Source: Anaerolineae bacterium (lineage in GTDB: Bacteria > Chloroflexota > Anaerolineae > Aggregatilineales > UBA3940). From it: 64,000 bases of DNA. This document shows positions 3,421-53,819 of the stretch, one piece after another. The first letter of the stretch is position 1, and the number at the start of each line of letters is the position of its first letter. Location: positions 741 to 64,740 of the forward strand of contig DAOTYH010000103.1 in the NCBI GenBank assembly GCA_034435015.1, written 5' to 3'. The position numbers were made by a program, and so were the translations under genes. Below the pieces are notes generated by a model. It ran no database searches. It saw only the letters and a list, made by a program, of their open reading frames with translations, and was not told the origin of the DNA.

Positions 3421-3963
3421 ATGACAGTTTGCCCACATTGCCAGCAGGATAATGTTGAGGGCGCGCTGATCTGTGAGAATTGCGGCATGTTGCTTGTTGC
3501 ACCGCGTGACGGATCACTGACAACGCGCCGTATGGAAGCAGAAGAGACGGCGACAGGGGCAGAGCTAGCGGCTACACTGCGTGGAACACAGACATTTCAT
3601 CCCGGTGCCCAGTTATATGTTCGCCTCTTGTCATGGTCGCCCCCTCAGCTCTTTGCACTTGAGGTAGAAGATGAGATCGTGCTCGGGCGGGTTGATAACT
3701 ATACAGATTTCCCGCCTGACATAGACCTTTCTCATTTTGGCGGCTGGGAGCAAGGTGTCTCTCGACTGCATGCCTCTATTCGACGCGAGGGAAGCCGGCT
3801 GATGGTCTCTGATCTGGGCAGTACCAATGGTACGTTCCTCAATGAGGAGCGTCTGCCTGCCCGCCAGCCTCATCTCCTGTGCGATGGGGACCGGATCAGA
3901 CTTGGACTGTTAGAATTGCAAATATTCTTCCATGAGCCGGGTCCTGAGGAGGAGGTTAACTGA
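3421..3963 (+). CDS. FHA-domain protein with N-terminal zinc ribbon
   Basis: CPHCQ...CENCG zinc ribbon, then the FHA core LGR...GVSRLHASIRREGSRLMVSDLGSTNGTFLNEERL. Start at M14 of the track ORF follows a GAGGGGGG RBS. Confidence 0.75.
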   Translation: MTVCPHCQQDNVEGALICENCGMLLVAPRDGSLTTRRMEAEETATGAELAATLRGTQTFHPGAQLYVRLLSWSPPQLFALEVEDEIVLGRVDNYTDFPPDIDLSHFGGWEQGVSRLHASIRREGSRLMVSDLGSTNGTFLNEERLPARQPHLLCDGDRIRLGLLELQIFFHEPGPEEEVN

Positions 3964-4013: not shown

Positions 4014-4451
4014 ATGGCAGTTAGAAAATTGGGGCTTCCTGCTGAATGTCTGGACCTGATCATCGGGCATGTACAGCGGGAAGCCCCTTACGAAGCCTGC
4101 GGCTTGCTTGGAGGGAAGGGTGGACAGGTCACGTCGGTCTTTTGTATCCCTAATGTTGCGCCTAACCCGTTAACAAGCTTTCTCATGGAACCCCAAGCCC
4201 AATTGTCGGCTCTCCTCACTATGGAGGAACGCGGCATGGAGCTTGTAGCAATCTACCACTCTCACCCTTCGGGCGCACGCAGTGATCCCTCTCCCAGTGA
4301 TATAGCGCAAGCCTACTACCCTGGAGTTGCCCATCTGATTATAGTACCTGGCTTGGATGGCGGGATAGCCAGCCTGCGGGCTTTCATGATCGAGGGGGGG
4401 CAAGTCTCAGAGATGCCGGTCATAACCAAAAGAGTGATACGCAACGGCTGA
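4014..4451 (+). CDS. JAMM/MPN+ family metalloprotease (Mov34/Mec+-like)
   Basis: EACG...HSHPSGARSDPSPSD matches the JAMM motif (E, HxH, S, D). Its size of 145 aa is typical of stand-alone prokaryotic JAMM proteins. Confidence 0.8.
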   Translation: MAVRKLGLPAECLDLIIGHVQREAPYEACGLLGGKGGQVTSVFCIPNVAPNPLTSFLMEPQAQLSALLTMEERGMELVAIYHSHPSGARSDPSPSDIAQAYYPGVAHLIIVPGLDGGIASLRAFMIEGGQVSEMPVITKRVIRNG

Positions 4452-18378: not shown

Positions 18379-19362
18379 TCACTCAGCAGGGTTGCTGACC
18401 AAGCAGGCAGGGCCTCCAGGTGAAGCTGTCAGTACAGTCTGCACGCCATCTACCTGCCGGAGCAACTGTTCAAGTTGTTCATGATGAGGCGGCAAAGTAA
18501 TGACGTGGACGTTGGGGCCTGCGTCAATAGTAAAGCAAGCAGGGATACCGTCTGCACGCCATCTGCGGATAAGCTGTATCAACTGGAGGGTGGCGGGAAG
18601 CCAGTAAAGCAGGGGCGGGTGAGAGGTCATCATAACGGCATGCATCATGAGCGCGTCTTGCTCAATGACTTCAGCCAGCAGTTCAAAGTCGCGCCTCAGG
18701 ATGGCATCCCGGCATTGCTTGAGGCGGCGAGGGGTGTCTTCAACGCGGGCGGTCTGCAGCGGCGAGGTAGAAGCTAGGCTGTGACCGCTTGTCGAGCCAA
18801 TGGCCTTGTGCTCTCCACTGACAATAGTAACCAGATCAAGCAGTTCCCAATGATCGGGCGGCGCAATAGTTTCGGCGTAGGAAGAAGCATGATCCTCGCC
18901 GCTGTACCATTCGACATACCCGCCCGGCACCGAGCGGCAGGCTGATCCTGAACCAAGCCGAGCCAGAGCTGACAGCTCGCGTTCTGCCAGATCAAGTCCT
19001 AATGCCGCACAGGAAGCCACTGTGAGTGCCGCAAAAGCCGAAGCTGATGAGGCTATGCCTGCGCCGGTAGGGAAATTGTTGTGCGATACGACCTCCGCGT
19101 GAAGGTTTACCCCAGCCAGGTGCCGGATGTGATCTAAGTGACGGCTGGCTCGCCTCAGCGCCTCTCCCGTTTGAGATTGCCCGTTGAGGCTCAAGGTATC
19201 GGAGGTAAGCTCCTCTGAAAAACGGACGGTGGTAACTGTCTCCAGCCCAGACAAGTTCATTGAGATCGAGCCGTTGGCAGGCAGACGCAGTGTATCGTTA
19301 CGATTGCCCCAGTACTTGATGAAGGCGATGTTGCTACAGCTACGGGCGGTTGCGGTATACAT
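18379..19362 (-). CDS. GHMP-family mevalonate (di)phosphate decarboxylase; context suggests phosphomevalonate decarboxylase
   Basis: NIAFIKYWGNRNDTLRLPANGSISMNL, GAGIASSASAFAAL, LARLGSGSACRS. It is adjacent to isopentenyl phosphate kinase and mevalonate kinase, with no phosphomevalonate kinase in the cluster. Confidence 0.8.
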   Translation of the reverse strand: MYTATARSCSNIAFIKYWGNRNDTLRLPANGSISMNLSGLETVTTVRFSEELTSDTLSLNGQSQTGEALRRASRHLDHIRHLAGVNLHAEVVSHNNFPTGAGIASSASAFAALTVASCAALGLDLAERELSALARLGSGSACRSVPGGYVEWYSGEDHASSYAETIAPPDHWELLDLVTIVSGEHKAIGSTSGHSLASTSPLQTARVEDTPRRLKQCRDAILRRDFELLAEVIEQDALMMHAVMMTSHPPLLYWLPATLQLIQLIRRWRADGIPACFTIDAGPNVHVITLPPHHEQLEQLLRQVDGVQTVLTASPGGPACLVSNPAE

Positions 19363-19373
19363 TACGCTGTCCT

Positions 19374-20195
19374 CTACTTGCTGGCACGCAGGAGTGTGCC
19401 GGAATCAAAGTTCTCTTGGCTAAGTGCATGCAGAATGTCGCCCGGAGCGGCGCCGGAGAAGATGCGAACGCTCAGCCCTGGCACGGCCTCGCATAGCGTC
19501 AACATGGAGGTCACCTTAGCAAACATTCCGCCTGTAACGTCCGTCTTGCTGGAACTGCCCAGTACGCCCCTCAGCTCATCTAAAGTAGCCGGTGTGATGG
19601 AAGGGATCACGCGGTTATCGGCATCCAGCACACCATTGTAGTCACCTGCCAGCAATATCTGTGCCGGTCTGAGTGACCGGGCTAGATAGTCAAAGACGTC
19701 CTCCGTGCTGATGATTGTTCCACCTTGTATGTCATCTATGGCTACATCGCCGTGCACCAGGGGGACTAATCCCACTTTGAGGGCTTGCTCAATCGGTTGT
19801 GTGGCCATGTGGATCAGCCTCTTCCCTGAGCAAAGAGCTGAAGCGGAGGGTTGAATGCGAAAGACAGGTACGTCCGCCGCATCAAGAGCTTCAAGCACGA
19901 TCTGGTTGAGCTTCGCCGCGGCGGTGGCAACCTTTGCGAACCCCACCCATCCCTGGCGATCAGTGACGCCCTGATGAGTGTTGTAGCGGCTTGCAACCAT
20001 ATGCCCGAAACTACCGCTCCCGTGCCCAATCAGCAGTGACAAGTCGGGGCGTGCCTCAAGAGCGTCTTTGATTTCACCGGCTATACGGGCGATCACGTCA
20101 TAACGGGCTGTTTCGGGCTGGGACTTATCTGTAATAAGCGACCCGCCTAGTTTCAGGAAAACAAGCATGGGTTTTATCAGCCCTCTATCGCACAA
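19374..20195 (-). CDS. Isopentenyl phosphate kinase (amino-acid-kinase fold)
   Basis: LKLGGSLITDK and GHGSGSFGH motifs. The start may be the internal M at 20168. Confidence 0.8.
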   Translation of the reverse strand: MCDRGLIKPMLVFLKLGGSLITDKSQPETARYDVIARIAGEIKDALEARPDLSLLIGHGSGSFGHMVASRYNTHQGVTDRQGWVGFAKVATAAAKLNQIVLEALDAADVPVFRIQPSASALCSGKRLIHMATQPIEQALKVGLVPLVHGDVAIDDIQGGTIISTEDVFDYLARSLRPAQILLAGDYNGVLDADNRVIPSITPATLDELRGVLGSSSKTDVTGGMFAKVTSMLTLCEAVPGLSVRIFSGAAPGDILHALSQENFDSGTLLRASK

Positions 20196-21114
20196 CCGTA
20201 TGAATCACACGAGTGGCGCCAGCCTTTTCGAGCGCGCTGTAGATGGATTGTACCCGATCAGGCATAGCTAGGGCGATCATATTGCCCCCTCCTCCTCCCC
20301 CTGAAAGTTTTGCGCCCTCTGCGCCGGCATTCAGGGCGGCCTCGATCAACCGTTCAAGTTCAGGAGAGGACACCCCTAGCTCACATAGCAGGGCATGATT
20401 ACGTGTCATCAGGCGGCCAAGCTGTCCTATTTCTCCTGTCTCAATGACCTGACGGGCTTCCCTGGCTATCCGGCCTATATTGGCAAAGATAAGGTCGTAT
20501 ATTTCAGGGGCGCTGTCGCGCCGCTCGCGTACAGCACTGACGGTCTGCTTAGTGGGGCTGGCAATGCCAGTGTCTGCAATCAGCAGGTGGAAGGGGGAAT
20601 GCACCCGGAAAGTTACGGGCGGCTGGCCCCGAACAAAATAGACGGGTTGACCATAACAGATCACAGTGTTATCAATGCCGCTGGGGGTGCCGTGATAGAA
20701 CTTCTCTACCTCATAAACCAGCGCAGAGAGTTCGCTCTCATTGAAGGGCTTTTCCAAGTACATGCCCAGCGCACGAGCCAGCGCCGCCGAGATAGCCGCT
20801 CCGCTCCCCATTCCGCCTGCTATTGGGATGGTAGAGGAGGCAGTGATCAACACATCTGGTTCTGGTACTTTTAACTGTTCGAGAACCAGCCTCACGGTCA
20901 GCGCCAATCCATGGGCTGATTCTTCGGCTAGAGAGAGTTGCAGATGCAGGTCAGCGGCCTCGATGAGCACCCCTCTCCCCGGCGGGCCGGGCTGTACAGT
21001 AGCCTGAGCATAGACGTTCCACACTGGCACTGCCAGAGCAGGTTGGCCGTAAACGACGGCATGTTCGCCGAAGAGGATGATCTTGCCGGGAGCTGTGGCG
21101 GTAGCGGCTTTCAT
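20185..21114 (-). CDS. mvk: Mevalonate kinase
   Basis: GKIILFGEHAVVYG, IPIAGGMGSGAA, YHGTPSGIDN, KLSGGGGGGN. The ATG at 21114-21112 overlaps the upstream gene's TGA (ATGA). Confidence 0.9.
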   Translation of the reverse strand: MKAATATAPGKIILFGEHAVVYGQPALAVPVWNVYAQATVQPGPPGRGVLIEAADLHLQLSLAEESAHGLALTVRLVLEQLKVPEPDVLITASSTIPIAGGMGSGAAISAALARALGMYLEKPFNESELSALVYEVEKFYHGTPSGIDNTVICYGQPVYFVRGQPPVTFRVHSPFHLLIADTGIASPTKQTVSAVRERRDSAPEIYDLIFANIGRIAREARQVIETGEIGQLGRLMTRNHALLCELGVSSPELERLIEAALNAGAEGAKLSGGGGGGNMIALAMPDRVQSIYSALEKAGATRVIHTVVR

Positions 21115-22073
21115 TTGAACAGATAAAGGATCAACAAAACGGCAAAGCCCCATAGCAGGACTGTGGCCTGTAGGGGCCGATCCCGCAGGATGACCTCATC
21201 AGGTGCTCCCCCTTCGCCTCGCACATGGATCAAGTACAGGTATCGGAAGATGCCGTACAGGACGAAGGGGATGGTAAGCATCATGGAATGGTTGGCTGGA
21301 AGGCCTTCGGCACTGAAAGTGTAGAGCGCATAAGTTAAGACTGTTGCGCCGGTCACTATCTGGATCATCTCGTCCAGCAAGCCAATTGTATATTGATCAA
21401 GGATAGCACGATGATTGTTGGCATTTTCCTGTAACAGCACAAGCTCTTGACGGCGCTTCCCAAAGCCGAGGAACAACGCCAGCATGGTGGTAAAGAGATA
21501 TAGCCAAGGGGAGAAGCGCACAACCTCTACCAGCAGGACACCTCCGATCACACGTAGCAGATAGGCAGAGGCCAGAGTCATGACATCAATCAGGACAATG
21601 TGTTTCAAGCGGAAAGAATAAGCTATCTGGAGTACTAGGTAGATGAGCAAGGTAAGTGCGAACGCAGGCTTAAGCAAATAGGCCAGCGGGAAACTGATCA
21701 GCGGCAGAATGATGGCAATGCCAATTGCGACGCCCTTCGAAAGCTGGCCGGATGGGAGCGGTCTGGTGCGTTTGGTCGGATGGGCACGGTCGGCTTCAAT
21801 GTCTGTTAGGTCATTGATCAGGTAGACCGTGCTGCTGATCAGACACCAGAGGGCAAAACCAGCCAATGTCTCAAGCAAATGAGGTGCGTCAAAGAGCTTA
21901 CGATCAAAGACGAGGGGTACAAAGAGAAACCCATTCTTGATCCACTGCTTGGGGCGCATTGTGCGCAGTAGGCCGAAGAGTTGGGAAAAGAGGGTTCTTT
22001 CTGTTCCGATGATGGCAGGGGTAAAGTTGCGCTCTGAGTTCTCGCTCTGGGCCATAGTTCCACCAACACACAT
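21111..22073 (-). CDS. UbiA-family polyprenyl-phosphate 5-phosphoribosyltransferase (decaprenyl-phosphate phosphoribosyltransferase/Rv3806c-like)
   Basis: MRPKQWIKN...YLINDLTDIEADRAHPTKRTRPLPSG...RLKH...LRDRPLQ is collinear, from memory, with the mycobacterial DPPR synthase. An alternative start lies at 22055. Confidence 0.7.
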   Translation of the reverse strand: MCVGGTMAQSENSERNFTPAIIGTERTLFSQLFGLLRTMRPKQWIKNGFLFVPLVFDRKLFDAPHLLETLAGFALWCLISSTVYLINDLTDIEADRAHPTKRTRPLPSGQLSKGVAIGIAIILPLISFPLAYLLKPAFALTLLIYLVLQIAYSFRLKHIVLIDVMTLASAYLLRVIGGVLLVEVVRFSPWLYLFTTMLALFLGFGKRRQELVLLQENANNHRAILDQYTIGLLDEMIQIVTGATVLTYALYTFSAEGLPANHSMMLTIPFVLYGIFRYLYLIHVRGEGGAPDEVILRDRPLQATVLLWGFAVLLILYLFK

Positions 22074-23005: not shown

Positions 23006-23806
23006 CTACTCCCCCGCAAAAACAGACAGGCGTGAAAAAATTACTGAAATCGGGCTGTCTATCGTCTGGACATAAAGCCCGATGTCGCCAGTTGGCATCT
23101 CAGCAATGTCTTCGATTGTGTCGAGGGGCAGGTAGTCCATATACAGGTTCAGTGCATTGCCGAAAGCTCGAACACTGATGACATGTTCGCCGATACTAGG
23201 GTTGATGTCTGGCGGAAGTGTCCCCTCAGATAGGGTAGTGGTGCTGTTGGGGCCGGTCCGATCTAACAAGGAATAACGTCCGCTACATGTGACGACAAGA
23301 GAACGAAAGTGGTTGTCATCTTGGAAGTGAAATAACAGCCCGTAAGCTCCCTGCCCTGTGGGGCATAGAGTAGGGGTTGCAACTGCTTCGGCGTAGAATG
23401 AGTCTGTCCTAACACGGGTCGTATATACCCATAGGGCATACTGGTTGGCGTTGATCTGGTAGCCTTCTGGCACAAGGGAGGAGTTTCCATTGTCCATATC
23501 AAGAACAGGCCAGCCCGTCTGGAAGGTAGTTTCATAGAGCAGAACGCCTGCTGGAGGGCGGGCTGGTATGGAGGGGGCAGTAGACGTTGCTTGAGGGAGC
23601 GGCTGCTCTGCTGTCTCAGGAGATGTAGGGAGGCTGGGAGTTACCTGTTGGAGTGTTGGAGTAGGGGGTGGGGGAGACAAAAGTGAGGGCGTGGCAGAAA
23701 CATTACCACCTCTGAAAGAGGGGATATTGCAGGCCAGCGCGGTTAGCAGAATACTCACGGCGGCGTGTAATGGGATAGTTCGTCTCATGGATGTTGTACT
23801 CCGCAA
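23006..23806 (-). CDS. Hypothetical secreted protein with Pro-rich linker and beta-sandwich-like C-terminal domain
   Basis: N-terminal signal or anchor (IPLHAAVSILLTALAC), a Pro/Thr/Ser-rich stretch, then a ~180-aa beta-rich domain. No motif recognised. Confidence 0.4.
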   Translation of the reverse strand: MRSTTSMRRTIPLHAAVSILLTALACNIPSFRGGNVSATPSLLSPPPPTPTLQQVTPSLPTSPETAEQPLPQATSTAPSIPARPPAGVLLYETTFQTGWPVLDMDNGNSSLVPEGYQINANQYALWVYTTRVRTDSFYAEAVATPTLCPTGQGAYGLLFHFQDDNHFRSLVVTCSGRYSLLDRTGPNSTTTLSEGTLPPDINPSIGEHVISVRAFGNALNLYMDYLPLDTIEDIAEMPTGDIGLYVQTIDSPISVIFSRLSVFAGE

Positions 23807-32440: not shown

Positions 32441-33052
32441 TTAGTATTGTAAACTGGCAAGAAAACGGTCAAAGGCGGCTTGATTGGCCTCAAAAGAGCT
32501 TTGCTCAGCCATGTAGGTCACTACAATGGCTCGATTGCCGTCTAGGATCACTGTATCCGTACCCAGAACGACTACCGGCAGACGTTGGATGAATGGGTTG
32601 GGGTCTGCGTCAACAAAAGCAAAGCTCATGCGGGTTAGGTTAGTGCCCCCTCTGGCAACCTCGTCCACACTCAGTACCCGGTAAGCTGACAGGTCAATAG
32701 AACGCTGAAGTGTCAGGTTGTCTAAAATATTACGGATGGTGCTCTGACTTCCAACCGGGATGATGGTGATCAGGTACTGGGTCTTAAAGGGCCTGGCTCT
32801 AGGATCACGGATGCGCACAAGGTAACTGCCGCGCTCGTCAACCAGCCACCCTGCCGGGTAAGAAGCCTGTATTCCCGCTTGCTGGTTCACATAAAGCCAT
32901 GTTCGCCCTTGATCACGCTGACGGATAAGAAGCCCCAGCAAGACACTGCCAACCGCCAGCGCAATGACCAAAACAGCGGCGAATTGGTCATTCTTAGTCA
33001 GAGATGGTGCTGGCTCTTGAAAGAGTTCTTCTTCCTGCATGTGATCACTCAT
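32441..33052 (-). CDS. Hypothetical single-pass membrane protein
   Basis: TM helix FAAVLVIALAVGSVLLGLLI followed by a ~150-aa ectodomain. It overlaps both neighbours and is presumably co-translated with them. Confidence 0.4.
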   Translation of the reverse strand: MSDHMQEEELFQEPAPSLTKNDQFAAVLVIALAVGSVLLGLLIRQRDQGRTWLYVNQQAGIQASYPAGWLVDERGSYLVRIRDPRARPFKTQYLITIIPVGSQSTIRNILDNLTLQRSIDLSAYRVLSVDEVARGGTNLTRMSFAFVDADPNPFIQRLPVVVLGTDTVILDGNRAIVVTYMAEQSSFEANQAAFDRFLASLQY

Positions 33053-37723: not shown

Positions 37724-40558
37724 ATGCGCCGCTTTTTTGGTGTCTTAGCGCTGTTTTCTGTGCTGGCGCTCCAAGGGTCGGCCCTGTCATGGCCTGAGCG
37801 GCAGGCCATTATAGATACAGAGGTCGAGGCTATCTTGGCTCGGATGGGGCCGGAGGAGCGGGTGGGACAGCTCTTTCTCGTAACCTTTTATGGCTCAGAT
37901 TATGGCCCCAATTCGGAGATCGCTAGGCTTATCTCTGAATACCGGGTCGGTGGTGTCGTGTTGTCAGTTGAGAATGGCAATTTCAGTAGTAATGGTGATG
38001 ACCTTCCAGAGCAAATCTACCGCTTGACCAGTGAGCTGCAACGATTAGCAGATGGGCTTCCAGGCGAAGGGGGAGCTGGAGAACTCGATCTGCCTGACAG
38101 TAGCAGAGTTTATATTCCACTATTTGTTGGAGTCGAGCAGGGGGAGAGCTATCCCTACGATTATCTCCCCTACATAATATCCCCTCTGCCAACTAGTATG
38201 GCTATTGGTGCGACGTGGGACCCTGTGTTAGCAAAGGAGGCAGGCAGGATAGCTGGTCAGGAATTGGCGGCACTAGGGTTTAACTTGTTGCTTGGTCCTT
38301 CTGCTGATGTCGTGCAAATTCCGCAACCCTACACTGCTGGTGATATGGGCACGCGCGTATTCGGCGGCGAACCTTTCTGGGTTTCACAGATGACAGCGGC
38401 TTATGTGCGTGGTGTGCATGAGGGCAGTGAGGGGCGTGTAGCTGTTGTGCCGCGTTATTTCCCTGGTTATGGAGGGGCCGACCGCCTTGCGAGTGTCGAG
38501 ATACCTACTGTGCGCCGTTCTCTGGACCAACTGATCCAGTTTGATCTGAAACCGTTCTTCGCTGTAACGGGTAGTGCTACCGATCCATTAGAACGTGCAG
38601 AGGGGCTGATGACAGGACACATCCGTTACCTTGGTTTTCAAGGTGATAACCCGCGCCTGTCAACACGTCCTATCAGCCTCGATCAGCAGGCTTTGCAGGT
38701 ATTACTGCGGCTTGACTCTATCAATTCTTGGAGGCAGAGCGGTGGATTGCTGGTCAGTGATGCGCTTGGTTTGAGGGGAGTACGGCGTTTCTATGATCCA
38801 CGAGAGGCGTCTTTCTCCAATCGGCGTGTTGCCCAGGATGCTTTTCTAGCTGGTAATGATGTTTTGTATCTAGGGAGCTTTGGGGGCAGTTCCTCTGCTG
38901 ATCAGACTGCAAAGATAATAGACACGATAGAGTTTTTTGTTCAGTTGTACAATGCCGACCCCGCCTTTCAGGCGCGGGTGGATGAGTCTGTCCGCCGCAT
39001 TATCCGCACTAAGCTCAATCTGTACCAGCGTTTTGAACTGGATAGGGTATTGTCACAACCAGCGGCTTTGGATGTGGTAGGGCAGAACAGTCAAGTAGCT
39101 CTCAACGTTGCACAGCGTGCACTTACCCTGCTCTCGCCAGAACAGCCTGAGCTATTGTCTGCTCCCCGATCGGGGGAACAAATTGTTATCTTCATGGACA
39201 GTCGTGTTGTCCAACCCTGTCAAACCTGTGTAGCACGTCCGCTTCTTGCCGTAGATGCACTCCAGTCTGCCATCTTGCGTCTGTATGGTCCACAAGCCAG
39301 CGATTTAGTTAGTCTCGCCAATATTCGGAGCTTTTCGTTTGATCAACTATCCAGTTACCTTCAATATGGCCCGCAGGAGGTCATCAGCGGAGAAGGTACA
39401 CCCCAGCCAGATGCTCTGGCCATTGCGTTGAACTCCGCAGACTGGATCGTTTTTGTGATGCTCAATGTTGATACGAGCATCGCGCCTTCATCGGATGTGG
39501 TGAAACGTTTCTTGGCTTCTCCGCCAGTTGGAGCAGATACGCAGATTGTCGTGATGGCGATGGGGGCACCGTACTATCTGGATTCGACTGAGATTGGCAA
39601 GTTGACAGCCTATTACGCTCTCTATGATTACTCGGAGCCTTTTATTGATGTAGCGGCTCGTGCTCTGTTTCTGGGGATTCCGGAGGGCGGTGCTTCTCCC
39701 GTTTCGGTAAGTGGAATTGGTTATGATGTTTTTGAGGCCACCTCGCCTGATCCTGACCAGATCATCAATCTCTCGATCATCAGTGAAGGAGAGAGAGAAG
39801 AAGGAACATTCACACCGACCCCGCCTCTGGCACTGGGACAGGGTGATACCCTCTTTCTGGTAACCAGTGTCATCTTGGATCAGAATGCTCATCCTGTGCC
39901 AGACGGAACACCTGTAGAGTTCATCGTTGAGTATCTGAACACTGGCCTGCGCGATACACTGTCTGCAACGACAACAGGGGGGATAGCAAGGGCTGACCTG
40001 CCCCTAACACGGGCAGGGGACCTGCGTATCACTGCTCAGAGCGGCTCGGCTCGTAATTCGAATGCCATCCGTCTGACTATTCCGGATACAGGGAGTGCGG
40101 TGATCTCGATCTTGCCCCCCGATATTCCGCCTACATCTACCCCAAGCCCGACCGATACCCCCACCCCTGAATCAATGCCGGCCTTGAATTCGACTGCGAC
40201 TCCTGTGATCGAGTCTAACCCTCAGCCGCGAAGTGTCTACTTCCGTGATCTTTTCTTATCTTTGCTAGGCTTGATCGGGATCGGGGGAGCTGTTTTTCTA
40301 TTTGGGCTTAGTAAGCATGACCTGAACTATGCCTTGCTTACCTCTTTGCCGGTGTTCATAGTTGGACTGGTAGGCTACAACTACTATGCTTTGCTGTTGC
40401 CCGGAGCTGGCTTCTGGCGTAGCTTGTTTGGTAGCAGTTGGGGAGCTGGTGTGGCTACTTGGGCAGGCGGATTACTGGGAGCTGGTATGGCCACGCTGGC
40501 TCTTTATGGCTGGGAGCGCTGGGTTGGCCCTTCGTCAGGGAGACAACAGCGTCGGTGA
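37724..40558 (+). CDS. Glycoside hydrolase family 3 (NagZ/BglX-like N-terminal domain) with long C-terminal extension and C-terminal TM helices
   Basis: Signal peptide. GH3 features [30 protein letters not shown] (nucleophile Asp context). A Pro/Thr/Ser linker ([15 protein letters not shown]) is followed by 3-4 hydrophobic helices. Confidence 0.7.
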
Positions 40559-41536
40559 AAGCGCTGTCGCCAGAATGGCGATGAAAAGGAGCACCAATGC
40601 TGTCAGAGCTAGGATCCGGTTGACCGGAGCGACTCGATTCAGGGGATGTCGGCTTTGCAGGTTAGGCCACAGTGTCAACGGACCGGTTGAGAGCAATACG
40701 TCTTTGAACGCCTGTACGCTAGGTGGCCGGTCGTCTGGATGCATTTCTAAGGCCCACAAGATGGCCTGTTCTGATCTGATACTGATATGGGGATTGAGGG
40801 TACGTGGCGGCCTCAATGCACCTGACTGAAGGAAGCGGGTCTTGGCTTCTGCAGGCGGCTCGTTGGTCAGAAGGTGGTAGAGGGTAGCTCCCAGTGAATA
40901 GATGTCAGAACGGGCGTCAGTATGACCAGAGTCTCCGCCGTACTGCTCTAGGGGAGTATAAAGAACTGTACCGCGTCCCTGAATCACCGTCACAGTGCGG
41001 GTATCATCAGGTATCATAACTTTGACAAGCCCGAAATCAACCAGTTTGATCAGTCCGTCAGGCGTCAATTTAATGTTGGCCGGTTTAATATCTCGATGCA
41101 GAACAGGCGGATTCTGGCTATGGAGATAAGTTAAGGCATCGCATAATTGCCCCGCCCAATCTAAAACCTGATGTTCTGGGAGAAAAGAACCTTTACTTCG
41201 GGCTTCTTCGATTTTCTGGCGGAGGTCATTACCAGGGACAAAGTCCATCACAAGGAAATCCCGGTTGTCCTCGCTGAAAAAATCAGATACTTTGGGAAGG
41301 CTGGGGTGATCGAGACGTGCTAAGACACTTGCCTCGCGGTAAAACTGTTCGCGGGCTTGTTCTTGCTCTGTTGGTGAGCTGGCGGGATCGATCTGTATCT
41401 CTTTGATTGCGCAGAAGCGTCCCTTCAACAGGGTATCTTCGGCGCGGTAGACAGAACCCATTCCGCCCTGTCCAACAGTTTCGATAATACGATACCGCGA
41501 TCGGATAATCGTACCCGACCTAAGGGGCGGCAACAT
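40535..41536 (-). CDS. Ser/Thr protein kinase, C-terminally tail-anchored
   Basis: [33 protein letters not shown], and a C-terminal TM helix [19 protein letters not shown]. Start set at the ATG at 41536 after GAGGAG; the track ORF start at 41689 would overlap the divergent gene. Confidence 0.85.
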
Positions 41537-41645
41537 TCTCTTCTCCTCGCGGCCCCAGGTACATGCCAGCACAAGCGGATAGCATGAAGATGGGCGGCCT
41601 GGAGAGACAATAACCTTGTATGGGGGGTTTGTCAAGAGGAGTGGA

Positions 41646-42335
41646 ATGGTGGTCAAGCAAACGGCAGACAAAGACAAACCGGTTCTCATTATTGTCGAGG
41701 GGCCTCTGCAGGGTCAACAGTGGGTTATGCATGGCGATCAGTTGACCATTGGACGTGGTGCGCAATGTGACATTGTCATTCCAGAGCGGAGTATATCACG
41801 AGAGCATGTCCGCATCTGGCGGGAAGGAAAACAGTATTTTATTGAGGATTTGGGTAGCAAGAACGGAACTCATGTCAACGCGGTCAGGCTGGAAAAGCCT
41901 ATTCCACTTAATGAGGGGGACGAGATACAGATCGCACTCTGTGCAAAGATCAAGTTCGTCGGCTCTGAGGCGACAGTGCCTCTCATATTGAAGGAGGGTG
42001 AAGGAGCTGAAATCGGCCTAAGGCTTGATGAACATACCCGTCAGGTTATCATCAATGGCAGACTTCTTGAACCGCAATTATCACTATACCAGTATCGTTT
42101 GCTAGAGATGCTCTACAAAAGCGGAGGCGGCATCTGCACCCGTGATGATGTGGTGCTTGCGGTCTGGCCTGAGGCGGCCAGAGAAGGGGTTAGCGAGCAG
42201 GCTATTGACGCGCTTGTGCGCCGCCTGCGCGACAGACTAGCCGAGCTGTCACCCGATCATGAATACGTTGTAACCGTGCGGGGGCACGGGTTTCGGCTGG
42301 TACAGCCGGGCAAAAACCCAGACTCTACCGGCTGA
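41646..42335 (+). CDS. FHA domain plus OmpR/PhoB-type winged-helix DNA-binding domain regulator
   Basis: N-terminal FHA domain ([46 protein letters not shown]). C-terminal trans_reg_C-like domain ([32 protein letters not shown]...VRRLRDRL...[11 protein letters not shown]). Confidence 0.8.
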
Positions 42336-46359: not shown

Positions 46360-47204
46360 AGTTTCCCTGCCTTAGCCCGCTTTAGTGCTTCGTCAACAGG
46401 CAAAAGGGGAGTGCGCAGGCAGGCAAATGCCTTTTCCAGCGATAGTGTGCAGTCGCGTGGACGTTCTGGCATCATGTCGGCGGCACGAACCGGTCGGACA
46501 ACCTGTATGGGATCATAGCCGAGCGCATCGAGAAGGCGGCTCCCGTATTCGTAACGGCTGAGGGGCTGGGGGCCGGTCACATGGAGGATGCCGCTCAGCT
46601 CACTGCCAGCTAGTTCCAATAAGACCTCAGCCAGATTCCAAGCCCAGATGGGTTGTCTGATCTCGTCTATAAACAGGGGTACGATTTCTCCTGCTTCGAT
46701 CTTCTCCAACATCCAACTGATCTGCCGGTTGGTGCGTGTCAGATCGTAGATCAGGCTGGTGCGTACTATCAGGCAGTCTGGGGTATTGAGAAACGTTCTT
46801 TCGTTTTCCGCTTTCACCCGACCATAGGGGCTGACCGGGGTAGGGGGAGCCTGCTCGTCGTAAGGGGGGTGCTTGCCATCAAAGATCAGGTCAGTCGAGA
46901 GGGCAATAAGGCGGCACTTTGCGCGTTGAGCAGCCTCACTGATATTGTGCGCCGCCGCGCGGTTGGCGGCTGCCATGTCCTCACTGCGGTCAGAAGTGCC
47001 TGCATGAATGATTGCTGTTGGCTTGACTTGCTCGACCAGGTCTAGTACAGCCTGACGGTTGCGCAGATCAAGTTGTACGGCTGTGCCTCCCCCGATGTTT
47101 GCGTGCCTGAAGTAGGTCCCTACCGTTTCCCATGAGCGGGCGGCCAAAGCTGAAAGCGGGCGCCCTAGATCACCGCTCGCGCCGGTGATGAGTAGTCTTT
47201 TCAT
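46356..47204 (-). CDS. RmlD-like NAD(P)-dependent sugar-nucleotide reductase (dTDP-4-dehydrorhamnose reductase family)
   Basis: LLITGASGDLG Rossmann motif, STDLIFDG, PVSPYGRVKAENE (YxxxK). ATGA overlap with the rnc stop. Confidence 0.7.
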   Translation of the reverse strand: MKRLLITGASGDLGRPLSALAARSWETVGTYFRHANIGGGTAVQLDLRNRQAVLDLVEQVKPTAIIHAGTSDRSEDMAAANRAAAHNISEAAQRAKCRLIALSTDLIFDGKHPPYDEQAPPTPVSPYGRVKAENERTFLNTPDCLIVRTSLIYDLTRTNRQISWMLEKIEAGEIVPLFIDEIRQPIWAWNLAEVLLELAGSELSGILHVTGPQPLSRYEYGSRLLDALGYDPIQVVRPVRAADMMPERPRDCTLSLEKAFACLRTPLLPVDEALKRAKAGKL

Positions 47205-47911
47205 GGTTGTCCGTGCTCAGCTTGCAGAATGGCCAGTGCCTGTTTGGCCGCCATCTGGGCGGCGGCCTGCTTGCTGAAGCCCTTCCCTTCTGCATAGCGT
47301 CTCTCACCAATGATCACGACAACCGTGAACTCCTTGGCATGATCAGGACCTTGACTACTAACTGTCTGGTAAATAGGGGTGATGCCAAGCTTAGCCTGAC
47401 AGTATTCCTGTAACATGCTCTTGGGGTCTTTGTCCAGCTCTAGGCGGAGTATTTCCTCTAAAGCGGCTTCAAAAAGCGGGCAGACAAAATCGCGAACTGC
47501 TTGAAAGCCCTGATCGAGGTAAAGTGCTCCTATAACTGCTTCAAAGGCGGCGCACAGATTGCCAACGCGGCTACGTCCGCCGCTTTCCTCTTCGCCTCGC
47601 CCAAGCAACAAAGCCTCGTTGATGTGAGTTTGGATAGCAAGCTCTGCTAGCGTCTGCGTTCGTACCAAAGCGGCCCGCAAGCGGGTCAAACGGCCCTCTG
47701 AGGCCTCTGGAAAACGATGATAGAGCATCTCGCCGCTGATGAAATCAATCACTGCGTCGCCCAGAAATTCGAGCCGCTGATTGTCCTCCGTTGCTTGGTC
47801 TGGATGTTCGTTGAGGAAGGAAGGATGTGTCAGGCTGCGCAGGAGTAAAGATTGGTCGTTGAAGTGAAGATTACTTAGTTCTTGGAAGGCGGCTATGCTA
47901 AGAGCTTCCAT
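47201..47911 (-). CDS. rnc: Ribonuclease III
   Basis: NQRLEFLGDAV signature and a C-terminal dsRBD (GPDHAKEFTVVV...GKGFSKQAAAQMAA). Confidence 0.92.
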   Translation of the reverse strand: MEALSIAAFQELSNLHFNDQSLLLRSLTHPSFLNEHPDQATEDNQRLEFLGDAVIDFISGEMLYHRFPEASEGRLTRLRAALVRTQTLAELAIQTHINEALLLGRGEEESGGRSRVGNLCAAFEAVIGALYLDQGFQAVRDFVCPLFEAALEEILRLELDKDPKSMLQEYCQAKLGITPIYQTVSSQGPDHAKEFTVVVIIGERRYAEGKGFSKQAAAQMAAKQALAILQAEHGQP

Positions 47912-47924
47912 AGTCCTGTTAATG

Positions 47925-49154
47925 CTAGTCCTCGAATGCTTTAAAGATCAGAACCGAATTATGACCACCGAAGCCAAAGGCATTGCTCATGGCAACTCGG
48001 ATGGGCATCTCTCTAGCCTGATTGGGCACATAGTCGAGATCGCAGATGGCGTCTGGCTCCTCGTAATTGATTGTGGGCGGCACTACTGAGTTCAAGATAG
48101 CTTGAACACAGAAGACTGCCTCCAATGCACCTGTAGCTCCCATCATATGGCCGGTCATGCTCTTTGTCGAACTAACAGGCACCCGGTAAGCGCGTTTACC
48201 TAGAACGGTCTTGATTGCCTGAGTCTCTGCGGCATCATTGAGAATTGTGCCCGTCCCGTGTGCATTGATGTAGTCAATTTCATCGGCGGTAAGATGGGCA
48301 TCATCTAGAGCACGTTGCATTGCGGCGGCTCCGCCTGCCCCATTCTCAGGGGGTGCAGTGATATGGAAAGCATCCGAGGATGCCCCATAGCCTGCTAGTT
48401 CAGCCAGAATGTTGGCACGGCGGGCACGGGCATGCTCAAGTGTCTCCAGCACTAGAATAGCACTCCCTTCCCCCATAACCAACCCGTCACGGTTAGCGCT
48501 GAAAGGAGAGGGTGTTTGACTGGTGCGGCGGCTGACCGCACCGATGCGTTCAAAAGCTCCGATTCCTAAAGGTGTGATGGCGGCCTCTGAGCCGCCGGCC
48601 AGCATGACGTCCACTACCCCGGCCCGGACAAGTTGAGCCGCGAGACCGATGCCATCTGATGCTGAGGCGCAGGCTGAGGCAACGGAGAAGGCAGGTCCAC
48701 GTAGCTGATGGGCAATACTGACCGCACCTGCTGCACCGTTGCTCATAATCTGAGGGATGCCAAAGGGGCTTAGGCGCCGTGCTCCCTGCTGGTTGAGGAT
48801 GGTGACCTGCTCAATCATCGAGTTAAGGCCGCCTATGGCGCTACTGATCACTACACCAATGCGGTGGGAGTTCTCGTCGGTGACCTCAAGCCCACTGTGT
48901 TGAAGGGCCTCGATTGCCGCACTGTGGGCCAGCCACTCGAACCGATCCTGCCGTCTGACCTCACGGGGATCAAGGATAGTCGTGGGATCAAAGCCCTTAA
49001 CCTCAGCGGCAACCTGTATTGAGAAGTTGGCGGTGTCAAAGAGTGTGATCGGTCCTACCCCTGACTCGCCTTTGATGAGGGCATCCCATGTGGACTGCGC
49101 TGACAAGCCGAGGGGGCTGATAACCCCATACCCTGTTATAACAACGCGGTGCAT
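47925..49154 (-). CDS. fabF: Beta-ketoacyl-ACP synthase II
   Basis: Active-site Cys context SVASACASASDGI, NAHGTGT, GHMMGATG, FGFGGHN. Confidence 0.93.
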   Translation of the reverse strand: MHRVVITGYGVISPLGLSAQSTWDALIKGESGVGPITLFDTANFSIQVAAEVKGFDPTTILDPREVRRQDRFEWLAHSAAIEALQHSGLEVTDENSHRIGVVISSAIGGLNSMIEQVTILNQQGARRLSPFGIPQIMSNGAAGAVSIAHQLRGPAFSVASACASASDGIGLAAQLVRAGVVDVMLAGGSEAAITPLGIGAFERIGAVSRRTSQTPSPFSANRDGLVMGEGSAILVLETLEHARARRANILAELAGYGASSDAFHITAPPENGAGGAAAMQRALDDAHLTADEIDYINAHGTGTILNDAAETQAIKTVLGKRAYRVPVSSTKSMTGHMMGATGALEAVFCVQAILNSVVPPTINYEEPDAICDLDYVPNQAREMPIRVAMSNAFGFGGHNSVLIFKAFED

Positions 49155-49214: not shown

Positions 49215-51083
49215 CTATTGAAGTCCGCTTAGCTTGTCAAGATCAGGTGTTTTACAGCCTGCTCCGGTGATGGACAGAACAATCAGTGCATCTTCTGGAA
49301 ACTGGGCCACTACCTGTTCCAGCGCGGGCCAGACCGTTGCGCTGGTCGGCTCGGCTAATATGCCGCGCCGGGCAAGCTGATGCAAACCTTGTATGATGTC
49401 CGCTTCTTCTACTACTGTGATAGTCCCCTGAGACTTCCGGATTGCGTCAAGGATGGTCTTTGCTCGCGGCGGGCTGGCAACCCGTATTCCCTCGGCCAGT
49501 GTATGCCCTTCGCTCTGGGAGGGGATTGGCCCATTGCTGTTGTGAAAACGAACCCACAGGGGAGCACAGGCCTTAGCTTGTACGCCGATCAACTTTGGAT
49601 GATGGCTGGCTAAACCGGCAGTCAGGAGGTCGGTAAAGCCGCGTGCAAGGCCCAATAACTGGGTGCCGTTGCCTACAGGCAGGATGACAACATCCGGGGC
49701 ACGACGGCCCAACTGCTCCCATATCTCGTAGGCGATGGTCTTGTTCGCCAGTATGACGTATGGATTGTAGACGTGGCTGGCGTAGTAAGAAGTCCCCATC
49801 TCCGAAGCTTGCCTTGCCGCTTGCGATGCCGCACTGCGCGGGCCAGGCACTTTCTCTAAATGAGCGCCGTATAACACGATCTGAGCAAGTTTGATCGGAG
49901 AGGCAGTCTCTGGTACAAAAATGCTGGTTTCGATGCCCGCTTGAGCCGCATAGGCGGCTAAGGCGGCACCGGCATTGCCAGATGAATCCTCATGAACCCT
50001 TTGGATTCCGCGTGCCTTGAGGACGGAGGCCAATAAAGAAGCCCCGCGATCCTTGAACGAGCCTGTCGGATTGAGACTCTCCAACTTGAGCCAGATGGTG
50101 CGTCCCATGAAGTGCGTTTGGATAAGAGGAGTCCAGCCTTCCCCTAGCGAGACAGGTACAATGCCGGGCGGAGTCAACATGGCCTGATAGCGCCAGAGGG
50201 AAGTTACATCGTGCTTGATGGCGTGCTGGTCGAAAGTGGGAGTACAGGTGAACTCAAGAGGTGATCCGCAGTTGCACTCTATTTGGTTAGTGTCAAGGGG
50301 ATAAGTTTGGCCGCAATTTGGACATCCTAGAGTGAAACCGCCCAGTCCAGCTAGTTCGTTGTTCCTACGGACATCCGTTGGGGTAGGGTGGTAGTACCCT
50401 TCAACCCAGAAGCTCCCTTCTGGACCAACTTCTTTTTTCCAGACAGGGACGATCTCTTTCAGTCGGTTGATGCCATAGCGGGTAGCCTCGAAGCACCCAT
50501 CGTCGCGATGCCTGCTGGAGCAAGCCACTATGACAGTTGTATCCCCTACCTGTAGCCTGCCGATGCGTTGCACAATGGCGATGCCCAACACCTTTGGGAA
50601 ACGTTCCCGTATCTCGCTGGCGATCTGATGCAGCATCTTCTCTGCCATGGGCTGGTAGGCTTCGTAGAGCAGATATTCAGTCTCAAACTGGTTAGCGGAG
50701 TTGAAAGTCACCCCTCTGACTGTGCCGTTAAAGAAGCAAACCGCCCCTGTCTCTGGGGTGGTAATCGCGTTAATCAGAGTGCCAAGATCAGGAAGGTTAG
50801 GGGTAATAGCAAAATATTCTGGAAAATCACTCTTGCCGAGGCCGCCGCTGACTGGTGGGAACAGCGCAATCTTATCTCCATCATGAATGGGGTCTTCAGG
50901 GAAAGCGTACTGATCGTTGAGGGCTACCAGTGCGCTGGGCAGAGAGGTCTGTAGGGAAGGAAAGTATTCTGATAGGTGAGCTAAAAGTATGGCAACTGTA
51001 GCCGGCTCAGGCAGTTCAACGCTGATCTGTTCTATGCCTGCCTGCTCACGCAAGGTAGCAAAAAGATGTACAACAACCTGCAT
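49215..51083 (-). CDS. Triple fusion: MoaD-like sulfur carrier, MoaE (molybdopterin synthase catalytic subunit), and threonine-synthase-like PLP enzyme
   Basis: Residues 1-81 are MoaD-like and end in FPPVSGG. Residues ~85-235 are MoaE (AVCFFNGTVRG...VACSSRHRDDGCFEATRYGINRLKEIVPVWKKE). Residues ~245-622 have a CPNCG...CNCG ribbon, LWRYQAML, SLGEGWTPL and NPTGSFKDRGA (PLP lysine). It is one uninterrupted ORF starting 3 nt after the moaC stop. Confidence 0.8.
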   Translation of the reverse strand: MQVVVHLFATLREQAGIEQISVELPEPATVAILLAHLSEYFPSLQTSLPSALVALNDQYAFPEDPIHDGDKIALFPPVSGGLGKSDFPEYFAITPNLPDLGTLINAITTPETGAVCFFNGTVRGVTFNSANQFETEYLLYEAYQPMAEKMLHQIASEIRERFPKVLGIAIVQRIGRLQVGDTTVIVACSSRHRDDGCFEATRYGINRLKEIVPVWKKEVGPEGSFWVEGYYHPTPTDVRRNNELAGLGGFTLGCPNCGQTYPLDTNQIECNCGSPLEFTCTPTFDQHAIKHDVTSLWRYQAMLTPPGIVPVSLGEGWTPLIQTHFMGRTIWLKLESLNPTGSFKDRGASLLASVLKARGIQRVHEDSSGNAGAALAAYAAQAGIETSIFVPETASPIKLAQIVLYGAHLEKVPGPRSAASQAARQASEMGTSYYASHVYNPYVILANKTIAYEIWEQLGRRAPDVVILPVGNGTQLLGLARGFTDLLTAGLASHHPKLIGVQAKACAPLWVRFHNSNGPIPSQSEGHTLAEGIRVASPPRAKTILDAIRKSQGTITVVEEADIIQGLHQLARRGILAEPTSATVWPALEQVVAQFPEDALIVLSITGAGCKTPDLDKLSGLQ

Positions 51084-51086
51084 AGC

Positions 51087-51563
51087 CTATTCTAACACCA
51101 CATCCCCTGACTGACCGCCGCGTTTTTCAACCAGCCGGACAGCCTCAATACGCATACCCCGATCAACCGCTTTAACCATGTCATAAACGGTTAATGCGGC
51201 GACAGATACTGCCGTCAGAGCTTCCATCTCAACACCAGTTTTTCCAACAGTTTGGACACGGGCCTCGATCAGGACACAGGAAGCTTGTTCGTCCAGCGAG
51301 AGGTTTACTTCAATGTGTGTTACCGGCAGAGGATGGCACAGGGGGATCAATTCGGCGGTACGCTTGGCCGCCATAATGCCCGCTATCTGGGCGACAGCAA
51401 GCACATCGCCCTTCTTGACGGCGCTGTTGCGGATCAGAGCCAGTGTTTCGGGCTTCATCGCGACACGACCGCGAGCAACCGCGACCCGTACGGTATCGGG
51501 CTTGCTCCCGACATCAACCATAGTGACGTGTCCTGTCTTGTCCACGTGCGTGAGTTCACCCAC
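51087..51563 (-). CDS. moaC: Cyclic pyranopterin monophosphate synthase accessory protein MoaC
   Basis: [18 protein letters not shown]...IPLCHPLP...[10 protein letters not shown] are canonical MoaC motifs. Confidence 0.9.
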
Positions 51564-51743
51564 AGTACGCTCCCTAGAATAACCAACAGCGTGAGGGATT
51601 GTTGAGAGTTTCGAGGATTATAGCCTGTAGGAGGCTTTCAAGACAATCGGGAGTGGCTAACAGGGTGGATATGGAGGGCTAAAATCGCCTGACCCGTTAA
51701 CACCATGTCCGCCTTTTGAGCACTCCCAGACAATCTGCATTCA

Positions 51744-52738: not shown

Positions 52739-53819
52739 ATGGATGATCTAATCAGCCGGCTCAGTGACCTGCAGACCCGAGTTGAAGCTCTTATGGAGCG
52801 TCTTTGACATAGCTGATAAGCGCCAGAAGCTGGCTCGTATTGAGGAACAATCTGCACAGCCCGGCTTCTGGGACGATGCTCGTACTGCCCAGCAACTGAT
52901 GCAACAGGCGGCGCGGCTGCGGAATGATATTGAACAGTGGAATAGCTTGTCACAACGGATCGAGGATGCACTTGATCTAGCTCAACTTGAGGACGAGAGC
53001 CTGCGCCCCGATCTGGAAAATGAGACTACTCAGTTGACTCATCTTGTCGAGCGGGCTGAGTTCACCCAGATGCTCTCCGGTGAATATGATCGCGAGGATG
53101 CCATCCTGGCGATCCACATGGGCAATGGGGGGGTAGATGCGATGGATTGGGCGGAGATGCTGGAGAGAATGTATCTCCGCTGGTGTGAGATGCATGGTTA
53201 TCGAACCGAGATCCTTGATCGGAGCGTAGGTGAGGAAGATGGTATCAAAAGCTCGACTATCGCCGTGAGCGGCGAGTGGGCTTATGGTTACCTTCGTGCT
53301 GAGCGGGGCGTCCACCGCTTGGTGCGGTTGTCTCCTTACGACTCTGCCCATCGGCGTCATACCTCTTTTGCTCTAGTTGAGGTGTGGCCAGATGTACAGG
53401 GAGATGTTCAGGTCGAGATTAACCCTGATGATCTAGAGATTGAGACCTACCGATCTAGTGGGGCGGGGGGACAGCATGTTCAAAAGAATGAGACGGCTGT
53501 CCGGATCACTCATAAGCCGACTGGGATCGTAGTGACCTGCCAGAATGAGCGGTCATTGACACAGAACCGCGAGAGCGCCCTGCGTGTTCTGCGGGCACGC
53601 CTGCTAGAACTTGAATACCAGCGTCGGGAAGCGGAGCGGGCGGCCTTGAAGGGTGAACATGTTGACGCCAACTTTGGCAATCAGATACGTTCCTATGTCC
53701 TCCATCCTTATCAGATGGTCAAAGATCATCGGACCGGCTACGAAACAGCTAATACGACAGCCGTGTTGGACGGTCAGATTGATGAGCTAATTGAGGCTTA
53801 CCTGCGCTTGGCCCAATAG
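52739..53819 (+). CDS. prfB: Peptide chain release factor 2, expressed via programmed +1 frameshift
   Basis: Frame 1 runs from the ATG at 52739 and reads [22 protein letters not shown], then TGA at 52805-52807. Frame 2 from 52806 continues [15 protein letters not shown]...[10 protein letters not shown] (GGQ). CTT TGA C is preceded by GGAG at a 3-nt spacing. Confidence 0.9.
52795..52808 (+). promoter_or_regulatory. RF2 autoregulatory +1 frameshift site (internal SD-like GGAG, 3 nt spacer, CTT TGA C)
   Basis: The sequence GGAGCGTCTTTGAC has the same slippery codon, in-frame UGA, following C and SD spacing as the classical E. coli prfB site. Confidence 0.85.

Follow-up and report, generated by a model that had tools for sequence, protein, structure and literature searches.

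A MoaD-MoaE polyprotein joined to a threonine-synthase-like enzyme in an Anaerolineae bacterium: a probable positional gene fusion in a compact operon

Does the joining of a sulfur carrier, its partner subunit and an amino-acid enzyme in one polypeptide tell us that they share a pathway, or only that their genes lay next to each other? The question is raised by an uninterrupted open reading frame (ORF) of 622 amino acids (aa), listed at 49215..51083 (minus strand) in a 64-kb stretch of DNA from an Anaerolineae bacterium (contig DAOTYH010000103.1; "the window" below means this whole stretch). According to Pfam hits, homologues and a structural model, it encodes MoaD, MoaE, a zinc ribbon and a ThrC-like pyridoxal-5'-phosphate (PLP) domain. 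We think that it probably arose as a positional gene fusion in a compact housekeeping operon, by the loss of two stop codons, and that MoaC, MoaD and MoaE would work together with the PLP enzyme acting independently; this view is drawn from sequence comparison and we hold it with fair confidence. A sequence-only reading made earlier on this DNA had instead taken the covalent link as a hint that the carrier may feed the synthesis of homocysteine or cysteine besides that of molybdopterin.

That earlier reading had named the three domains, and both Pfam and AlphaFold2 agree with it. On the fused protein Pfam recognises, all above the gathering score, ThiS (residues 5-81, 57.8 bits), MoaE (99-210, 100.7 bits) and PALP (311-607, 246.9 bits). 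The AlphaFold2 model, for which 32 fused homologues were used, reaches a mean predicted local distance difference test (pLDDT) of 87.2 and three well-folded domains, its low-confidence segments being just 78-85 and 229-247, that is, the two domain junctions. The MoaD/ThiS carrier (residues 1-81, ending in FPPVSGG; 50841..51083, minus strand, like the other parts of the ORF) spans the full model of PF02597, whose cutoff is 22.5 bits, and scores 57.2 bits with the NCBIfam moaD model TIGR01682, under the equivalog cutoff of 66.15; as had been expected of the N-terminal ~81 residues, the segment 1-77 models as a beta-grasp (strands 2-7, 19-23, 52-55, 58-60 and 71-75, helices 10-15 and 30-40; pLDDT 85-94). 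The MoaE domain, the catalytic subunit of molybdopterin synthase (about residues 89-228; 50400..50819), exceeds the PF02391 cutoff of 23.4 bits and is folded with pLDDT 77-94. Across the 32 aligned fused homologues, over which the invariance of key residues was assessed throughout, H192, R193, K209 and K216 do not vary, the two lysines lying seven residues apart in RLKEIVPVWKK and being the presumed equivalents of E. coli MoaE K119 and K126. After linker 2 (residues 229-247, YHPTPTDVRRNNELAGLGG; 50343..50399; pLDDT < 50) comes a zinc ribbon of four invariant Cys (C254, C257, C270, C272; 50259..50342), the N-terminus of the PLP enzyme, and then the fold-type II, ThrC-like PLP domain itself (49215..50258), with Lys344 in SFKDRG, DSSGNAG at 366-372, GPR at 414-416, YASH at 434-437 and AEG at 530-532. 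The Cys ribbon, the SFKDRG lysine and DSSGNAG had all been noted before; they are present, and their key residues are invariant. On the upstream side the stop codon TAG of moaC is followed by GCT and then by the ATG of the fused ORF, so that both the 3-nucleotide (nt) gap and the single 622-codon ORF of the earlier description are confirmed by the ORF listing and the junction sequence.

A first possibility to be weighed is that the fusion is an artefact of assembly or sequencing, three separate genes having lost their stops through errors. In close relatives, in-frame stops do fall precisely at these junctions, and the sole other exact copy, contig L001 (loci are cited below by such L numbers, proteins by P numbers), has DNA 100% identical to that of the window over 9,980 nt, so that it gives no independent evidence and was dropped as a confirmation. 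Against this, a protein-collection search returned, besides the identical protein, 34 other clusters (at 90% identity) in which a single protein unites the three Pfam domains, 46-79% identical and coming from many samples in NCBI, JGI, ENA and Logan assemblies; this is the fusion in relatives that the earlier reading had led one to look for. Moreover, both linkers are kept as coding sequence, and the reading frame is maintained across the 32 aligned fusions. Because 34 further clusters share the three-domain architecture, we consider an artefact excluded on these comparisons, with a residual probability that is negligible. The fused proteins appear in public databases as "threonine synthase" or "molybdopterin converting factor subunit 1", and the three-domain MoaD-MoaE-PLP architecture was found in none of the literature searched.

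How the fusion came about can be followed in the relatives. The comparison set was made of loci carrying architectural variants and of 80 loci from species-representative genomes, with a phmmer census of stop-to-stop ORFs. Across Anaerolineae the order moaC, moaD, moaE, PLP gene, (fabF), rnc, divergent from ftsY and prfB, is conserved, and every fusion state of the locus occurs. All genes are separate in five loci (L009, L011, L014, L070, L072); MoaD and MoaE are fused, with the PLP gene separate, in 12 loci, among them that of the cultured Bellilinea caldifistulae GOMI-1 (L035) and loci from metagenome-assembled genomes of Anaerolinea, Thermanaerothrix and Leptolinea; MoaD is separate, with MoaE and PLP fused, in two (L002, L089); the triple fusion occurs in 35 clusters, that of the window included; and in two loci (L003, L090) MoaD is joined to PLP with MoaE deleted. 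A triple fusion in Bellilinea caldifistulae and other Anaerolineaceae, as a match to residues 2-611 of the query might have indicated, was ruled out by the stop-to-stop census, in which MoaD+MoaE and PLP are separate ORFs. Twelve loci (L004, L005, L016-18, L020, L022, L023, L025, L028, L037, L039) have moaC, a 68-aa ORF and a MOSC gene before the PLP gene: in L004 (6873-9092), for example, a conserved acidic 68-aa ORF without Pfam match is followed by a 146-aa MOSC gene and by the PLP gene, overlapping by 4 nt, and in L037 MoaC and MOSC are themselves fused. The 68-aa ORF was considered as a hidden MoaD and rejected, being acidic and helical and having no Gly-Gly end. Five loci (L006-L008, L013, L019) have no moa genes at all, and the PLP gene keeps its place there, with ftsY/prfB divergent upstream and fabF or mazG plus rnc downstream; it may even be fused to its downstream neighbour MazG (L008, P0052 and others), the two genes being separate with a 4-nt overlap in L006 and L007.

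The junctions themselves are telling. In L009, L011 and L072 the moaE stop is immediately followed by an in-frame PLP ATG (e.g. ...PGE*MGISRVICTNCG), in L010 and L014 one or two codons separate the two, which are again in frame, and in other genomes the genes are 2 nt apart or overlap slightly; linker 2 of the fused protein corresponds to the moaE stop codon and the 5' end of the PLP gene in these unfused relatives. With abutting in-frame junctions, one substitution per stop codon yields the architecture of the window. In an approximate neighbour-joining tree of PLP domains the fused forms fall in one Anaerolineae clade, within which are nested forms where MoaD has split off, where MoaE is deleted, or where all moa genes are lost and PLP is kept (L013/P0044, P0046). 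Judging from these loci, it is the PLP gene that stays and the moa modules that come and go.

What, then, is the PLP enzyme? Its best solved relatives are class-I threonine synthases, first that of M. tuberculosis (2D1F, E = 8.6e-42), then those of Aquifex (2ZSJ), B. subtilis (6CGQ) and T. thermophilus (1UIM), at 30-37% identity; Foldseek aligns it to 2D1F, 2ZSJ and 1UIM with template-modelling (TM) scores of 0.81-0.84. It keeps the SFKDRG motif with the Schiff-base lysine (K344) and the two-domain fold-type II architecture of these enzymes, and differs from them by its extra N-terminal zinc ribbon, which is also present in stand-alone and gammaproteobacterial members of its family. Five solved ThrCs were compared by motif with fused, stand-alone and MazG-fused family members. 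Throughout the family the canonical ASTGNTS is replaced by (E/D)DSSGNAG, VNSVNPxRxEGQKT by YASHxYNPxxxxxxKT, GNFDD by GPRS/E, PVGNAGN by PxG(N/H/Q)G(T/S)x and ATAI by AEGI; in T. thermophilus numbering, checked on the sequence, Lys61 is kept, Thr88 has become Ala, Asn154-Ser155 Ser-(His)-Val and Arg160 a variable hydrophobic residue. The earlier remark that DSSGNAG is unlike the canonical ThrC loop was thus well taken, and it marks a whole family: on motif evidence the domain is to be placed in a separate ThrC-like family. This family is large (more than 6,000 hits in the protein-collection search). Members 35-40% identical to the domain of the window, sharing its hallmarks, zinc ribbon included, occur in Aliivibrio fischeri ES114, Vibrio, Psychrobacter, Shewanella, Endozoicomonas and Moellerella.

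Several observations count against our view that a housekeeping enzyme has been caught in a positional fusion, and should be set out together. The domain falls under every NCBIfam ThrC cutoff (PRK06450 262.5 against 301; PRK08197 248.1 against 303; TIGR00260 146.2 against 167.1). At the positions of T. thermophilus Thr88, Asn154, Ser155, Arg160 and Asn188, which are taken to bind the substrate phosphate, the window has Ala371, Ser436, His437/Val438, Val443 and Asn472, so that just Asn188 is kept. With four canonical phosphate-site residues missing and all ThrC cutoffs missed, "threonine synthase" is only a guess, if the most likely one that the sequence offers. About 80% of the sampled Anaerolineae loci have moaE or MOSC directly upstream of the PLP gene; these loci are phylogenetically non-independent, and the adjacency may be inherited synteny or functional coupling. 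Lastly, P0040 and P0041 (L003 4995-6608 and L090 3691-5133) are MoaD+PLP proteins produced by in-frame deletion of MoaE (...FPPISGG is joined by a short linker to EGH-PPTP, the tail of MoaE), and their MoaD keeps the Gly-Gly and 26-29 of 33 family-conserved positions despite the loss of MoaE, so that it is possibly a genuine carrier for the PLP enzyme.

This last case can be read in other ways. L003 and L090 are without moaC, of which L003 retains the last ~30 codons immediately upstream, a sign of a decaying moa locus; between P0040 and P0041 MoaD is 48% identical against 63% for PLP, which in multiple alignments puts MoaD about 2.3 standard deviations below the family trend. It is conceivable that MoaD is here under relaxed constraint, trapped as the carrier of the start codon of an essential ORF; another possibility is that synthesis of the molybdenum cofactor (Moco) continues with a moaE encoded elsewhere. 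More generally, the PLP enzyme could be tied to carrier or Moco sulfur chemistry, with MoaD-thiocarboxylate as a donor or with sulfur mobilised for MoaD or MOSC. Such a function would explain both the moaE/MOSC adjacency upstream and the keeping of MoaD after the deletion of MoaE and moaC, and, if true, would add to the ThrC superfamily a new branch linked to a carrier and separate from both MetM and CysM; we consider it unlikely.

The more specific proposal, which is that of the sequence-only reading, is that the MoaD thiocarboxylate, once freed at Gly81, serves not only MoaE but also the PLP enzyme as a homocysteine or cysteine synthase of the MetM or CysM kind. There is a real precedent in the MetM/MetO/Mec/MoeZ thiocarboxylate pathway to homocysteine of Streptomyces albulus (Hasebe et al. 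2024, cited after a GapMind 2026 preprint, which also describes MetM as "often misannotated" as threonine synthase). The likeness is that of a ThrC-fold PLP enzyme genetically associated with a ThiS/MoaD-type carrier that needs JAMM-type maturation, here with carrier and enzyme in one polypeptide; the departure of the PLP family from canonical ThrC at the substrate/phosphate site, and the Gly-Gly retained in P0040/P0041 at loci without moaC, would fit as well. As comparator for MetM we took Microcystis ThrC_1 (sequence from the supplement of PMC12172450), which is not MetM itself but a homologue 51.6% identical to it, whose gene adjoins a metO-like gene (PMC12172450). When all were aligned together, this protein fell among the canonical ThrCs, with which it shares 36-40% identity; to the domain of the window it is 30.0% identical, the lowest value of all comparators. 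CASTGN, GNYDQ and the Arg are conserved in it, and the CxxC zinc ribbon is absent. The model scores are likewise reversed, ThrC_1 reaching 350 bits with TIGR00260 and 138 with PRK06450 against 146 and 262.5 for our domain. Cysteine synthases are far more distant, matching at E of 1e-13 or weaker, against 1e-42 for ThrC, and over the N-terminal half only (TIGR01136 cysKM, 68 bits for a cutoff of 344). The CysO/CysM/Mec+ system of M. tuberculosis also unites in function a carrier thiocarboxylate, a fold-type II PLP enzyme and a JAMM protease; its carrier, CysO, is a dedicated one, whereas the sole carrier here is the MoaD of the moa operon; the same holds in comparison with MetM, which has a dedicated metO carrier and a S-adenosylmethionine (SAM) riboswitch. 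Neither such a carrier nor such a riboswitch accompanies our PLP enzyme: Rfam gives no match in the window to a SAM, a Moco or any other riboswitch, no MoeB/ThiF-type E1, thrB, hom, met or rhodanese gene is among its ~55 annotated ORFs, and no small ORF ending in Gly-Gly lies near the family members found outside the Anaerolineae moa operon, those of other phyla included. Within Anaerolineae the same PLP clade occurs without a nearby carrier, with MOSC or fused to MazG, and PLP-only derivatives are nested inside the fused clade.

A MetM-type or CysM-type assignment is thus not supported as such by the sequences. The earlier description of the domain as ThrC-like stands, with the addition that it belongs to a separate ThrC-like family. 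Cysteate synthase models were not among the top NCBIfam matches, in a comparison that included no direct test against cysteate synthase. The step from covalent link to carrier-fed synthesis of homocysteine or cysteine is not supported, since the loss of stop codons between abutting, often in-frame genes explains the fusion, and it is further weakened by the PLP genes that occupy the slot without carrier, beside MOSC or joined to MazG; we judge it distinctly improbable.

A second functional rival deserves attention. The PLP enzyme might be a sulfur-mobilising eliminase, similar to a cysteine desulfhydrase, that feeds sulfide or persulfide to MoaD-AMP or to MOSC for the synthesis or sulfuration of Moco, in which case its adjacency and fusion to MoaE or MOSC would be functional. 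In most Anaerolineae loci the PLP gene comes right after moaD-moaE, or after MOSC behind moaC, with overlapping or abutting stops. In addition, many gammaproteobacterial members of the family have RidA directly after the PLP gene and a divergent LysR regulator before it (L055 9989-12349, from Aliivibrio fischeri ES114; L043-45, L050, L053, L054, L057, L059, L061, L069, L071, L073, L074). This linkage of RidA to the Gammaproteobacteria and Pelosinus paralogues suggests a chemistry releasing an enamine or imine, and the PLP-RidA-LysR operon, annotated as threonine synthase by similarity, looks from its gene content like a catabolic eliminase system. These organisms presumably carry a standard thrABC operon, so that their family members would do something other than ThrC. 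The resemblance to the PLP-RidA-LysR systems of Vibrionaceae, Psychrobacter and Endozoicomonas extends to the zinc ribbon, EDSSGN, G-x-R-E/S, Y-x-x-H, IAYEIWEQ, AEGI and EPTSA. However, these paralogues are of a different clade, at ~40% identity, and their context is catabolic rather than housekeeping or moa-linked; the nearest solved relatives of the window's domain are threonine synthases, not desulfhydrases, and the PLP gene persists in its slot without moa or MOSC (L006-8, L013, L019). We find an eliminase serving Moco very unlikely.

Three other neighbourhoods of the family may be recorded here. In Pelosinus (L049 9995-12806) the order is PLP, SDF symporter, RidA; in Amnibacterium flavum (L068 9015-11110) an ornithine-cyclodeaminase/mu-crystallin gene overlaps the PLP start, a pairing similar to that of SbnB/SbnA; and in Tissierella (L041 9017-11101) the family member is directly preceded by a ThiF-family gene.

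For the Anaerolineae clade, a threonine synthase or a near variant of one seems to us an evenly balanced proposition, and it is the persistent housekeeping position that favours this role. We do not use the similarity to NCBIfam "threonine synthase" models as functional evidence, and rejected it as such, since the RidA-linked Aliivibrio paralogue scores alike (257 bits on PRK06450, against 262.5 for the window's domain). No second, canonical thrC was seen in the 1.6 Mb of locus DNA examined, which is a very small share of each genome.

On MoaD and MoaE the sequence-only reading has fared well. It is established that the Gly-Gly carboxylate of MoaD-type carriers has to be free and that fusions of MoaD to MoaE require cleavage. 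As encoded, Gly80-Gly81 sit inside the ORF; their codons, at 50841..50846 (minus strand) as had been reported, mark the predicted cleavage site and the future thiocarboxylate C-terminus, which is where the separate moaD genes of relatives end. Indeed those of L009, L011, L014, L072 and L089 terminate exactly at ...FPPVSGG-stop, and F75-G81 (FPPVSGG) is invariant in the 32 fusions. Linker 1, about residues 82-88 (LGKSDFP; 50820..50840, minus strand), varies in length and composition among homologues, being rich in G/S/D/E/T and 4-12 aa long, or up to about 50 aa in P0029/P0031; residues 78-85 have pLDDT < 50, and the MoaD-MoaE junction shows no start codon of its own. The stop right after Gly-Gly in unfused relatives, the invariant FPPVSGG, the variable disordered linker and the lack of a start codon at the junction together make cleavage after Gly81 highly likely, as comparison and analogy go. 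There is experimental precedent in Deinococcus, where the unlinked JAMM protein DR0402 cleaves the MoaD-MoaE fusion DR2607, generating the C-terminal Gly, and is itself needed for the conversion of cyclic pyranopterin monophosphate (cPMP) (PMC8832034; see also PMC11237513). The proposal of a polyprotein processed at Gly80-Gly81 is thus supported both by this precedent and by the relatives.

Which protease would do it is less certain. The earlier reading had pointed to an orphan JAMM gene, and the window does encode a stand-alone JAMM/MPN+ metalloprotease (4014..4451, plus strand; Prok-JAB, 72.3 bits), related to PfJAMM1 (5LD9), whose metal site E...HSHPSGARSDPSPSD is intact (E / HSH / S..D). 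Its neighbours are an FHA gene and plsY, the fusion locus is 45 kb away, and none of the 90 related loci has a JAMM gene within 10 kb; the DR0402 gene is likewise unlinked to its substrate. By analogy we regard this ORF as a fair candidate for the cut after Gly81, the intact motif speaking for it and the distance and want of linkage against. The locus thus has the features of M. tuberculosis MoaX and Deinococcus DR2607: MoaD with its Gly-Gly, a short linker and a complete MoaE in one ORF without internal start, the C-terminus of the carrier blocked as encoded, and a stand-alone JAMM/MPN+ gene with intact motif elsewhere in the genome. It differs in having a third part, zinc ribbon and ThrC-like PLP domain, after MoaE, so that the predicted product of cleavage is a MoaE-PLP protein of ~541 aa and not MoaE. 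This is precisely the protein encoded directly by L002 and L089, beside a separate moaD.

The working of the locus may be pictured as follows. MoaC and the 622-aa precursor would be translated from one mRNA, and a JAMM/MPN+ metalloprotease would, by precedent and on the comparative evidence, cut after Gly81 to release an 81-residue MoaD with a free Gly-Gly. A MoeB-type enzyme, which would have to be encoded outside the window, would then adenylate and thiocarboxylate MoaD, as in the established pathway, and MoaD would dock on the MoaE domain of the ~541-aa MoaE-PLP protein for the conversion of MoaC's cPMP into molybdopterin. The PLP domain, on a disordered tether of ~20 residues, would act independently of the carrier, as the lineage's resident zinc-ribbon ThrC-like member, most likely in the threonine synthase reaction or a related phospho-amino-acid reaction.

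The origin of the fusion is thus ordinary, and the architecture is a new form of MoaD-MoaE polyprotein. It extends the class of such polyproteins that require a JAMM protease to a case where MoaE stays tethered to an unrelated enzyme. It is also a caution that a striking domain fusion need not imply a shared pathway: every intermediate state exists, and in-frame stops make fusion a one-mutation event. In our opinion the uncharacterised zinc-ribbon ThrC-like family is a more useful lead than the fusion. Its members are routinely named "threonine synthase", although most of the canonical phosphate-site residues are absent and there are RidA-linked catabolic paralogues; should Anaerolineae have no other ThrC, the enzyme is a non-canonical threonine synthase that merits characterisation, and otherwise many threonine-synthase annotations in Chloroflexota are mistaken.

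Around the fused ORF, the operon is completed upstream by moaC (51087..51563, minus strand), a cyclic pyranopterin monophosphate synthase of 158 aa (Pfam MoaC 203.8 bits; NCBIfam TIGR00581 206.9 bits, above cutoff), and downstream by a fabF-like beta-ketoacyl synthase gene (47925..49154, minus strand; Pfam), 60 nt beyond the fused ORF and a conserved neighbour of the PLP gene, and by rnc (RNase III; 47201..47911, minus strand), also a conserved downstream neighbour. A promoter-like site TTGTCT-18-TATAAT (51617..51646, minus strand), a match to only 10/12 consensus positions, lies upstream of moaC and is possibly, on sequence, the start of a moaC-fusion-fabF-rnc transcription unit; between moaC and rnc there is no terminator-like site except one within fabF.

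Of the other genes in the window, prfB (release factor 2; 52740-53819, plus strand) shows the classic +1 programmed frameshift: from the ATG at 52740 runs a frame of 21 codons that ends in CTT TGA C (52802-52808) with GGAG 3 nt upstream, and the listed ORF start at 52764 belongs to the post-shift frame. Across the 64 kb no Rfam family reaches the gathering score, so that there is no hit to a tRNA, riboswitch or other known RNA; three ORFs, 13187-14437, 23006-23806 and 32441-33052 (all minus strand; 416, 266 and 203 aa), have no Pfam match at E <= 0.001. A mevalonate-pathway cluster (18379-22073, minus strand) comprises a diphosphomevalonate-decarboxylase-like gene, an amino-acid-kinase-family gene (isopentenyl-phosphate-kinase-like), a GHMP kinase and a UbiA prenyltransferase. 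A Ser/Thr protein kinase with a C-terminal FGE-sulfatase (formylglycine-generating-enzyme-like) domain is encoded at 9309-11267 (plus strand), and further kinase and FHA genes at 3382-3963 (zinc ribbon + FHA), 40535-41689 (kinase) and 41616-42335 (FHA + Trans_reg_C). GC skew is positive over the whole window.

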